Below the pieces are notes generated by a model. That model had not been told where the DNA came from, did not search any database, and saw nothing but the letters and a program-made list of their open reading frames with translations. Made by a program: the position numbers and the translations under genes. A DNA stretch of 40,148 nt from Perkinsus olseni (Eukaryota), in the NCBI GenBank assembly GCA_013115125.1, contig JABANN010000315.1:1-40148 (forward strand). The letters run 5' to 3'. This document shows, piece by piece, positions 18,106 through 21,001 of this stretch; position 1 is the first letter of the stretch; each line of letters begins with the position of its first letter.

Positions 18106-21001
18106 CTATCTGAACCTGAGGCAACCTCCCATTAAAAGCATGGTGGTGGAGATCATGCTTACCCCTGTACAAGTGATGACGAGAAAAACTCCCAGAGCGA
18201 AGAGTAGCACGGCCGAGGCGTTCCTCCTGTTCCACAGAGCAGATCCGGCGGGTCTTGACTGAGAAATGAAGCAAGATAGAAGCATAGAGGCACTCATGGA
18301 GTTACATTGACGAAAAACAACGGTGGCAGGACGAATGCGATGATATTGCAAACAGTGGAGCCGAGGAAGGCGAAAACGACCTGACAGGCAAAAGTTTGTA
18401 AGCCCGGTGAACAGTGGGTCCGCACTCACCTGGATGTGAGGCACTGCGATAGCACAGGCCAGAGATGTAACGCACAATAGCAAAATCTCTGCTACATCTG
18501 AAGGCAGTAGATCATACAAGCCAGACGAGACTCTCTCGCGCGACATCGAGGGATTAACAGGATAACGAGTGATATCAGGTTCGAGTCCGAGGTGGTCCTA
18601 CGTAAACTTCTCGAAAGAGTGTGGGGGATTTGCATGACGTGGTTAATACAGAGACACATGCAGTACAACGGAACGAGCAAGGCAGGGGAGAACCACTATC
18701 ATGAGAGCAAGAGCACTCTCATTCTGAGACTATCGCAATAAGCCTCCGCACACCAAAGAAGCGTAAACTTGACTCAGCAGATTATGCCCGCCAATTTCAA
18801 GCGTGATTTCATCACGACACCAAAGCCGACGAGATCGTCGATAATATCAGGCAGTTACAATTGAAACCGCACAATCAAATTGCGTCCCCTTACTCCAAAG
18901 TTTGCTGCTGAAGCTCCTCCTTGAATGACCAACCTCATATCCTCGCAGCTCTGTCACCAAACTCTCGAGAGACTGATAACAGGGTAGGACCAAAAGGGGA
19001 TAGCTCAGGTCCAAGGTGAGGAAGAGGGCAATCCTCACTATATTAACTAGAATACCTGGAAGAAATACTTCAACGCGGAGTCGAACCCGAGTGAGAATAG
19101 TACTGTCACTAGGGAAATTGAGGAGAATATCGCCACTGACGCCACCTGGCATGTCATAGGCGTACAGGTACCTGCAAATGAGCAACGCGTATGCTCGAGA
19201 CCATCAGCAGCGGCCAGGCCACGTGATGGGTACCACCTCATCGTGACTTACCCGAACACTGCGAATGCCACATACATGATGGCGACCGAAACCATGGTCC
19301 ACCGTATGGCCTGAAGTTGCAGTGAAACCGGGGAACGATTCGGGGACAGAGGCTACCTCGTTCGAACGACTCTTAGTGGGCGCGCGCATTTCCTCTACGA
19401 CGACTGGGAGGATCTGCCAAAACCGGTGAGCCACAGAGAGAAAGATATCCTTACATTGAAGTGGCACAGATAACTGACGCTACTTATTGATATGGCGAGG
19501 AATGATGAAGTGCCACTGAAGTATTTAATCGAGACAGCAGAAACCTGAAGAAGAGCGAAGGTTCGACCCCGGCGTGGTACACTGGATGGCGAATGTCTAC
19601 TTACTGTCTCCGAGGGCTCCGCAGGGGGGACCCATTGAACAGGTTTTTCTATGATGCGAATTATTGACAGAATAACAACAGCTGCTGTGAGTGCCTGAAA
19701 TAAGACAGTAGCCGGATTCGAACCAGGGACCTCTCGATCACCCACGTACCAGCATAGCAACGATCGAGAGAACAGCAATCAATTTGAAACCGCTCATATT
19801 ATCCCGCAGACAATATGGGAACACCACGACTAGGGAAAGGACTTGTATCTGCAAAGAATGAACCTGATGACAAATCTTCCGTCCTAAATGCCCAAATTTC
19901 CGTCGGATGACCGCTCCGAACGTTTCCCAGCTAATTTCAGCCACGGAAACGATGCAGAACAGCAATCCGTTCGAGATGGGAATGAGGAAGTCAATAAGAC
20001 GAACGTAAAAACATCACAGTCCAGAACGAACGGTCTTAAAATCGGAAGGCAGACATTTGCTCAGGTCAGAAGTCTTAGACAGATGGAACGACAGCAGAAA
20101 AATTTTTCGCTGAGAGCGAGGATGAATACATATATCTTCCGGGTGCAAGGGAAAAGAACTCATGCTCTCATCATGCTCGAACCACGTGAATGGCACTTCG
20201 GTCTCACCAGAAGTGTCCGGTCGCGAAGTAATTTCCGACGGACAACAACGCGGCGTCATTAACACTACCCAGAGGCGGAGAGCCGAATAGCCGCCGGCGA
20301 ACTCCGTGATGCCAGGAAAGATCCATTCCAGAACAGGCACCATCATATCCGCCATGACGATCATGTAAGAGCCCATTACCAGCCATGTTGCTGAAACACT
20401 GAAGGTCTCAGGTTCGATCCCCGGCTAGAGGTTCTTACTTATTGCGATGCAGGCCAACGTAAGTAACTCCGCCCATTTCCCGCAGGTTGCGCGGGCAAGC
20501 GTCCCGTAGCTCGTCATTCCAGTGCCTACAACACGTGTTCAACCGCGAGGCGCTACTCCTATAGACCTACGTTTGGATGCTGCGACGAGCAGCTCGCCAG
20601 CGTAAGAACTCAGCACTCCGATGCCGAGCAAGATTAAAGTTCCTGAAAAAGATACTTGAGAGGCCGAAGCTGGCTGACTATGAAGCGACACATACGACGT
20701 AACCCCCACGGCCGAAGGGAGGAAAACTTCCTGACATTTCCCGGTGGAGCGCAAGTTGAGAATTTTAAAGAGCCTAAACCCTGACCGGGGGTTCGCAGGT
20801 AACGTGTTGATCAGCCTCTCACCTGCGATCAGCCCGCTTTGAGCTAAGGCGTAGGGTAGAGTGAGAACGCCGGCCCCAATAGCCGTGCCTGAAAGGAACG
20901 ATCTGAGTTGGAGGTGATCGACAGATTCCACTCAAATGATGTAAGGGGCTACAGGTTGAAGTATTACAGACAAGAGCGTAGATGGCATCTTTGACTCCCA
21001 T
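18106..21001 (-). CDS. Amino-acid transporter, AAAP/SLC38-like (Aa_trans) family; 14 introns
   Basis: Splicing gives one continuous frame: MGVKDAIYALVCTAIGAGVLTLPYALAQSGLIAG...TSYGTLARATCGKWAE...SYLCHFNILP...EEMRAPTK...VFGYLYAYDMPGGVSGDILLNFPSDSILVNIVRIALFLTLDLSYPLLVLPC...AIAVPHIQVVFAFLGSTVCNIIAFVLPPLFF. These are hallmark Aa_trans motifs. Confidence 0.93.
19711..19739 (-). other. tRNA 3'-half-like fragment (variable loop + T-arm) inside intron 19695-19749
   Basis: Minus strand GATCGAGAGGTCCCTGGTTCGAATCCGGC: AGGTC variable loop, T-stem 4/5 paired, TTCGAAT loop. No 5' half. Confidence 0.7.
20391..20431 (+). other. tRNA 3'-half-like fragment antisense to intron 20391-20438
   Basis: CTGAAAC-ACTGA-AGGTC-TCAGG-TTCGATC-CCCGG-CTAGAGG has canonical 7/5/5/5/7/5/7 tRNA spacing. 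No 5' half. Confidence 0.65.

Follow-up and report, generated by a model that had tools for sequence, protein, structure and literature searches.

The origin of new spliceosomal introns is a long-standing question, and a 48-nucleotide (nt) intron of the clam parasite Perkinsus olseni raises it in a concrete form: can an intron consist for the most part of a piece of a transfer RNA (tRNA) gene read backwards, and if so, how did that piece come to be there? The intron is the fifth of an amino-acid transporter gene (Aa_trans, PF01490) on the minus strand, at 18077..21442 of the 40,148-nt stretch of contig JABANN010000315.1 analysed here ('the window'). Our reading, to which we give a probability of about 0.55, is that intron 5 is an ordinary, constitutive U2-type intron that is mostly a tRNA-gene relic and that arose from inserted tRNA-gene DNA. 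On the best reading of the sequence, 34 of its 48 nt would be inherited, as the reverse complement, from the stretch of a tRNA-Phe(GAA) gene that runs from the anticodon loop to the T arm. The intron would also be one of a local group of short introns in which pieces of the 3' part of tRNAs lie in either orientation: introns 5, 7, 8, 12, and 13 of the transporter gene and one or more introns of a gene nearby. Such tRNA-bearing neighbours hint at an undescribed source of intron sequence.

The structure of the gene follows from protein P0001 ('hypothetical protein FOL46_005219 [Perkinsus olseni]', 497 residues), one of three Perkinsus proteins retrieved with a 118-residue minus-strand open reading frame (ORF) of the window; two exon-bearing ORFs of the gene match Aa_trans in Pfam. 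The protein can be placed on the minus strand, from 21442 to 18077, with every residue matching, in 17 exons separated by 16 introns; the gene is therefore intron-dense, with 1872 nt of introns against 1494 nt of coding sequence. Intron 5 (20391..20438, minus strand, phase 1) runs from GTAAGA to TTTCAG; donor and acceptor consensus are both present, as is typical of U2-type GT–AG introns. A candidate branch point, CTGAG, lies 17 nt from the acceptor, as judged by eye and with the proviso that the Perkinsus consensus may differ. If the intron were retained, translation would meet an in-frame TAG after five codons.

Contigs from four public sequencing runs were compared with positions 17900–22500 of the window. 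Three of these runs (X7, X18, and X8) belong to three separate studies, X18 being recorded as RNA and X7 and X8 being presumed RNA from their intron-less contigs; the fourth, X9, is a DNA run from a divergent P. olseni. One contig in each of X7, X18, and X8 joins 20390 directly to 20439, thus leaving out precisely 48 nt, whose plus-strand ends are CT..AC, and no contig of these runs crosses intron 5 unspliced. Among the joints listed, at least 15 of the 16 introns of the P0001 model (intron 5 and 14 others) have a matching RNA joint. The orthologue in Perkinsus marinus (P0003), 79% identical, is colinear with P0001 at every intron position of the aligned part, including the site of intron 5; the only gap between the two proteins is a single residue away from any intron. 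Because the RNA joints are exact, unspliced contigs are absent, and the P. marinus protein is colinear, intron 5 is real and, as far as the RNA contigs go, constitutive. The 48-nt intron proposed by the first-pass annotation is accordingly both annotated and spliced as drawn. Low-depth unspliced contigs cover introns 13 (18468–18884; X7 and X8) and 6 (19893–20298; X7), representing either pre-mRNA or DNA carry-over. No transporter paralogue with which to compare intron age occurs in the window.

For comparison with natural tRNAs, a pattern composed of the window's own CTGAA, AGGTC, and GGTTCGATCCC at their own spacing, with 10 positions left open, was run against a metagenome collection. It returned at least 122 loci, in which ARAGORN found at least 164 tRNAs, at least 108 of them tRNA-Phe(GAA); at least 22 copies in at least 20 loci are eukaryote-type tRNA-Phe genes with downstream T runs. 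The panel thus consists of eukaryote-type genes from metagenomes and not of P. olseni's own tRNAs. Plus-strand positions 20391..20424, antisense to the transporter gene and equivalent to tRNA positions 32–65, align without gaps to the 22 listed copies at 26–30 of 34 positions: 30 in three copies (L023 twice and L120), 28 in 11, 27 in seven (L064, L092, L116, and L121 among them), and 26 in one. The 27/34 that the first-pass annotation had given therefore lies within the range of natural genes. These scores are to be read with the selection in mind, since the pattern was taken from the intron itself and 21 of the 34 positions were thereby fixed; the fair figure, over the 13 free positions, is 9 of 13 at best (binomial p about 1e-3).

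The agreement is unevenly distributed. Compared with L120, tRNA positions 40–65 match at 25 of 26 and positions 32–36 at 5 of 5, whereas positions 37–39 match at 0 of 3, the acceptor strand (positions 66–73) at 1 of 8 (1–2 of 8 over the comparisons made), and the exon side (positions 1–31) at a random 7 of 31. Likeness thus begins exactly at the intron boundary, as had been claimed, and the claimed antisense tRNA 3' half survives for positions 32–65, the acceptor strand being represented by its spacing only. The first 14 nt of the intron (20425..20438, minus strand), comprising the 5' splice site and 8 nt, have no sequence likeness to tRNA-Phe. Within the block, the T stem would pair at 4 of 5 positions, the would-be anticodon stem at 1 of 5, and the acceptor stem at 3 of 7. 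Intron 5 and the genes that score 30/34 (L023 and L120) have the T-stem mismatch A51/C63 in common; in the other tRNA-Phe copies this pair is U51–G63 or C–G. With the 30/34 and the 25/26 at positions 40–65, this shared mismatch takes the identity beyond generic tRNA motifs, albeit in a pattern-selected panel.

Other comparisons single out the same place. When all 80,230 34-mers of the window were scored against 37 distinct natural tRNA-Phe strings, 20391 scored 30 and the next best 25, 25, and 22; the binomial expectation for the scan as done is about 4e-8. In a blastn-short search of the whole window against 92 distinct natural tRNAs, intron 5 matches at 25/26 (E 1.2e-5) and only introns 5 and 7 reach E < 0.05; the five matches listed for intron 5 are all to tRNA-Phe, in a panel that holds only one tRNA-Val. 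A profile hidden Markov model (HMM) of the variable-loop-to-acceptor part of 88 natural tRNAs scores intron 5 at E 2.2e-3, E-values here being window-wide. When the stretch searched with the Rfam tRNA model is cut off at 20391, which permits a 5'-truncated match, 20391–20432 align to model positions 31–71.

Could this be coincidence? On the chance explanation, a splice acceptor and a fortuitous word of the GGTTCGA type happen to lie side by side. TTCAG does end 7 of the 16 transporter introns, and neither tRNA finder calls a tRNA: ARAGORN reports none anywhere in the window, and Rfam none at its gathering threshold in the whole 40148-base window and none at E <= 10 in stretches of 451 and 81 bases, the truncated match reaching 11.3 bits against a gathering threshold of 29 (E 2.9). 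An intact tRNA gene or a complete tRNA pseudogene is ruled out on these same grounds, together with the anticodon stem (1/5), the acceptor stem (3/7), and the exon side (7/31). Against chance stand the 25/26 and 30/34 identities with their expectation of about 4e-8, the drop to 25 or fewer for every other 34-mer of the window, and the concentration of perfect T-loop motifs in the introns of one gene, described below. We disfavour chance and regard it as the least probable of the explanations considered. From the sequence, we conclude that 20391–20424 probably descends from Phe-type tRNA-gene DNA. The assignment to tRNA-Phe in particular rests on positions 40–65 and a pentamer constrained by the splice site, because positions 37–39 and the acceptor strand mismatch and TTCAG is a common acceptor. 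The earlier idea that the anticodon loop supplies the acceptor is therefore upheld in that positions 32–36 coincide with TTCAG at all five bases; it is weakened by the 0/3 at positions 37–39 and by the frequency of this ending among the gene's introns. Antisense CTGAA and the acceptor TTCAG coincide because the likeness goes up to the 3' splice site and no further.

Intron 5 is not alone. The 11-nt T-loop/B-box motif GGTTCGANNCC occurs five times in the window against 0.40 expected, a count that none of 100 shuffles reached (maximum 2), and all five copies lie within transporter introns, each in a different one and in both orientations relative to the gene: antisense in introns 5 (20411..20421, plus strand), 8 (19560..19570, plus), and 13 (18578..18588, plus), and sense in introns 7 (19714..19724, minus) and 12 (19077..19087, minus). 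In this 40-kb window, the five copies span only 18578–20421, or 1.85 kb. No 7-mer is more enriched in the transporter introns than GGTTCGA, of which their 1872 nt contain six copies and the remaining 38.4 kb another six (Poisson p 8e-7); this heptamer is followed by NNCC in 5/6 intronic copies versus 0/6 elsewhere (p 5e-6).

Intron 7 (19695..19749, minus strand, 55 nt), confirmed by an RNA joint, is the strongest companion of intron 5. Its sense-oriented tRNA-like core at about 19707–19744 is the best profile match of the window (HMM E 5.2e-5), with a T stem paired at 4/5. From the anticodon on, upstream of the variable loop, it agrees with natural tRNA-Pro(UGG) at 23/30 columns with one 2-nt gap, and its best blastn-short match to the natural tRNAs is 19/20 (E 0.045). 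Introns 5 and 7 both keep the variable-loop AGGTC at the correct tRNA spacing. In X9, several contigs match only about 19710–19745, a 36-nt stretch at the core of intron 7, and continue on either side into sequence unlike the window. Other copies of this core thus seem to exist in the P. olseni genome, be they a genuine tRNA gene or additional introns. The other three B-box introns, each confirmed by an RNA joint, are intron 8 (19545..19604, minus, 60 nt; HMM E 0.49), intron 12 (19056..19103, minus, 48 nt, in frame and without a stop; E 0.64), and intron 13 (18498..18893, minus, 396 nt; E 0.53), all with T stems paired at 3/5. After the T loop, introns 8 and 13 (19545–19604 and 18556–18610) agree at 9/12 positions, 7/10 outside those fixed by the motif, which weakly suggests a common type of source.

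Beyond the transporter gene, a second gene on the plus strand adds an antisense case. Its 58-nt GT–AG intron at 25954..26011 has an antisense tRNA-like arm (T arm 25968–25984, T stem 5/5), scores 25/34 in the 34-mer scan and E 1.6e-3 with the profile, and is placed through the gene model of P0004, an almost identical protein in a different P. olseni assembly, with 21/21 residues matching across the junction. A 181-nt intron of the same gene (27270..27450, plus strand; 22/22 residues across the junction in the P0004 model) contains a sense T-arm-like hairpin (27425–27441, paired at 4/5), separated from the 3' splice site by 9 nt, for which the profile match is not significant (HMM E 1.7). In all, at least seven introns of the window, intron 5 included, bear tRNA arms. 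The clustering in introns holds window-wide: all three HMM matches with E < 0.01 are in introns, as are seven of the eight best, and known introns, 2795 nt in all, contain 7 of the 19 window matches of the degenerate word GTTCRANNC (p 1.9e-4). The eighth of those best matches is at 22348, where one of two one-mismatch B-boxes upstream of the transporter ATG lies (22348–22358, plus; the other is at 21893–21903, minus); a candidate intron around it (22400–22345) comes solely from a permissive ORF-based heuristic.

A number of results weigh against a population of tRNA-gene relics, in addition to the bias of the panel, the mismatched segments of intron 5, and the failure of ARAGORN and Rfam to call a tRNA. 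Introns 8, 12, and 13 are matches at the level of the motif only (HMM E 0.49–0.64), and of the pairs in each of their T stems (3/5), the motif itself dictates two and chance accounts for the rest. Rfam in truncated mode finds no tRNA in intron 7, and the introns of the second gene are known from the P0004 homologue model and not from RNA. Outside the motif, the five B-box elements resemble one another at 9–18 of 46 positions, which is about random; an A-box search of the window gave 0 matches; and no target-site-like boundary repeats flank the introns, the longest being 3–6 nt (4 nt at intron 5). A profile built from the five elements found no significant further copy in the window. Finally, the 13 one-mismatch B-boxes of the window include none in the transporter introns, and exact and one-mismatch copies together (18 versus 10.1 expected) are not remarkable as a total. 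Five perfect B-boxes without imperfect copies sit badly with the view that the sequences have no present function.

This last pattern is the main support for a different explanation, in which the B-boxes would be kept for a reason, either as DNA sites of transcription factor IIIC (TFIIIC), akin to extra-TFIIIC (ETC) sites, or by recurrent gene conversion from many tRNA genes. Neutral decay should leave imperfect copies and the 1872 nt of transporter introns contain none, so some force may preserve the motif. Both orientations are present; in three introns the T stem around it pairs no better than expected by chance, as if the motif persisted and not the hairpin; and the X9 differences listed for intron 7 (19704 and 19709) fall outside its tRNA-like core. 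Yet the variable-loop AGGTC, at the right spacing in introns 5 and 7 and outside the B-box, speaks for plain tRNA ancestry, and no rationale is known in P. olseni for clustering the sites of an RNA polymerase III (Pol III) factor within a Pol II gene that is well expressed. We therefore regard selective retention as improbable for the set as a whole. Recency, conversion from tRNA genes, and use as TFIIIC sites may each have contributed to the preservation of five perfect B-boxes in one gene.

How, then, would tRNA-gene DNA have become intron? The arrangement of the pieces is suggestive. Both significant antisense cases, intron 5 and 25954–26011, read from their 5' end as a donor hexamer, 8 nt, a reversed T arm, and a reversed variable loop; both sense cases examined for register, introns 7 and 12, read as a T arm, 8 nt, and a T-rich run to CAG that resembles a tRNA trailer. 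The 5' ends of these two antisense introns appear to correspond in position to a reversed and complemented tRNA 3' end (positions 66–73) plus six trailer bases, a register into which 20425–20438 would fall in intron 5. Because an insert of some 40 nt in such short introns necessarily lies near both ends, the shared register is suggestive and not proof. A 54-nt intron of the second gene (26111–26164) has a perfect hairpin of 5 bp and a 7-nt loop as far from the donor (hexamer plus 8 nt) as the arms of intron 5 and 25954–26011; the loop does not resemble a T loop, and the hairpin may be a decayed member of the group or a chance occurrence.

Under the insertion reading, pieces of tRNA-gene DNA would have entered genes, and the survivors would be those that the spliceosome removes exactly. 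An antisense insert would bring both splice sites with it: the Phe anticodon loop reads TTCAG and could act as acceptor, and the stretch just beyond the tRNA-like 3' end reads GTAAGA and could act as donor. In a sense insert (introns 7 and 12), polypyrimidine tract and acceptor could come from the T-rich stretch that follows the tRNA-like part. Source DNA would be in ample supply if P. olseni is like P. marinus, a species of the same genus for which hundreds of tRNA gene copies are reported: 349 tRNA-Leu-CTT, 116 tRNA-Gly-GGA, 46 and 9 tRNA-Ile, and 23 tRNA-Tyr genes on its scaffolds, or more than 500 copies over five tRNA gene types (Kojima and Jurka, PMC3706591). The same paper reports tRNA-targeting Dada transposons of 4.7–11 kb, inserted at the A box of tRNA genes, in P. 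marinus. As far as these reported counts and Dada go, tRNA-gene DNA is unusually abundant and associated with mobile DNA in Perkinsus (PMC3706591).

The competing history is capture, in which the intron position is old, a fragment of a tRNA gene landed inside the intron, and deletions trimmed the product to the roughly 48 nt that is typical here. The occurrence of tRNA-arm-like motifs inside larger introns (the 396-nt intron 13 and the 181-nt intron of the second gene) and the lack of insertion scars or boundary repeats are in keeping with it, and with 16 introns per 1494 nt of coding sequence introns are likely targets of insertion. On the other hand, the tRNA-like block reaches the last base of intron 5 and supplies its acceptor, so that an older intron would have lost nearly all of its own sequence, acceptor included; the arm lies at the same offset from the donor in 25954–26011 and intron 5; and intron 5 keeps 25/26 at positions 40–65 even though neutral divergence appears fast, intron 9 differing from its X9 copy at 6/41 positions. 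Capture thus appears unlikely, although it deserves more credence than selective retention of the B-boxes. Insertion of tRNA-gene fragments is, we infer, the likeliest origin, ahead of capture by older introns, at roughly even odds.

If the relic reading holds, the tRNA likeness would be a historical trace and the introns would probably have no present function. The first-pass annotation had gone further and suggested that a tRNA or a 3' tRNA-derived fragment (tRF) pairing with intron 5 would mask its branch point and 3' splice site. In the version that we considered, mature tRNA-Phe, its 3' half, or a 3' tRF would regulate splicing in this way. The predicted duplexes are indeed strong, at -63 kcal/mol with the 3' half of natural tRNA-Phe, versus -22.7 +/- 4.3 for shuffled introns, and -28.4 with the last 22 nt; such strength is not evidence for masking because it follows trivially from antisense origin. 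The suggestion has no support in what the RNA contigs record, every one that crosses intron 5 having it removed, although unspliced low-depth contigs do exist for introns 6 and 13. Moreover, the intron lacks complementarity to the acceptor strand (1–2/8), which would be part of a 3' tRF, half of the tRNA-bearing introns are sense-oriented and could not pair, and the anticodon-loop part is one base shorter in X9, where the loss of one base of the A run at 20394, among the differences listed, breaks the tRNA register. The fold of intron 5 is unremarkable (z -0.82), and folding of 10 short introns gave no special structure (z -0.82 to +1.78). We consider regulation of this kind very improbable.

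Two further observations concern the transcripts. For three introns, 19056–19103 (48 nt), 20643–20822 (180 nt), and 26479–26538 (60 nt), the length is divisible by three and no in-frame stop occurs, so that retention would be frame-neutral and add 16, 60, and 20 residues, respectively; homologues are without these residues. RNA contigs of X7 and X18 stop at 21460–21461, 18–19 nt upstream of the ATG (21442), that of X7 running straight into adapter, and no spliced-leader sequence is visible on these contigs.

The documented sources of new spliceosomal introns are transposon-like introners, filler DNA at repaired breaks, and a few insertions of organelle DNA. If the introns of about 50 nt in Perkinsus are repeatedly made from tRNA-gene fragments, a new class of donor would join these sources, and the amplification of tRNA genes in Perkinsus would be linked to the intron-rich genes of the genus. 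Such a model would be directly testable by the presence or absence of introns among Perkinsus species and P. olseni isolates, and it would call for caution in annotation, as tRNA-like matches inside Perkinsus genes would be intron content and not tRNA genes. A more general proposal, which we put forward tentatively and regard as possible though doubtful, is that the 3' parts of amplified tRNA genes are a source of new short introns in P. olseni and perhaps in Perkinsus at large. These 'tRNA-half introners' would insert in both orientations, with a GTAAGA-type donor and a TTCAG acceptor when antisense and a T-rich trailer when sense, their B-boxes being kept by conversion from, or factors shared with, real tRNA genes.

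How does this locus compare with known systems? A spliceosomal intron of mitochondrial-DNA origin has reportedly been found, and intron gains in Daphnia are said to be captured filler DNA at repaired breaks. The likeness lies in unrelated cellular DNA becoming intron through usable splice sites, whereas here the donor would be tRNA-gene DNA, the event would seemingly have recurred many times within 10 kb, and no short direct repeats are present. Short interspersed nuclear elements (SINEs) derived from tRNAs, and fragments of tRNA pseudogenes, likewise place a B-box and tRNA-related sequence in Pol II introns in both orientations; they lie within long introns, whereas the piece described here fills almost the whole of its intron. 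A tRNA-derived SINE was rejected as an identity for the element in intron 5, given that no A box (0 matches), no 5' half, and no tail or body is present and that the intron is too short for a body. ETC sites are B-boxes that bind TFIIIC without Pol III, in yeasts and mammals. Judged by sequence, the five exact B-boxes, in a window without a tRNA gene, would resemble them in being isolated from any tRNA gene, consensus in form, clustered, and without preferred orientation; they differ in lying in introns of an expressed gene and in that two of the five have further tRNA sequence.

The Dada elements and amplified tRNA genes share the genus of the window, yet nothing of Dada is present at this locus and the tRNA types reported for P. 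marinus (Ile, Leu, Gly, and Tyr) differ from the Phe- and Pro-like pieces found here. In the open-access literature, supplements aside, we found no description of tRNA-derived spliceosomal introns or of tRNA-like intron content in Perkinsus. The sister lineage (dinoflagellates and Amoebophrya) is reported to be rich in introners (PMC7789003, PMC9860276, PMC12130899), those of Amoebophrya having inverted and direct repeats and not being tRNA-like (PMC7789003); the words 'tRNA', 'SINE', and 'Perkins' are absent from the main text, supplements aside, of two of these introner surveys (PMC9860276, PMC12130899). Introners, as known from Micromonas, Aureococcus, and dinoflagellates, resemble intron 5 in that a short foreign sequence makes up the whole intron, occurs in either orientation, brings or completes its own splice signals, and is found in several introns. 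The transporter introns differ from them in showing no near-identical multi-copy family within the window (9–18/46 outside the motif, and no further copies), in having neither terminal inverted repeats nor target-site duplications, and in that the pieces are about 34–42 nt long and, on our reading, derived from tRNAs.

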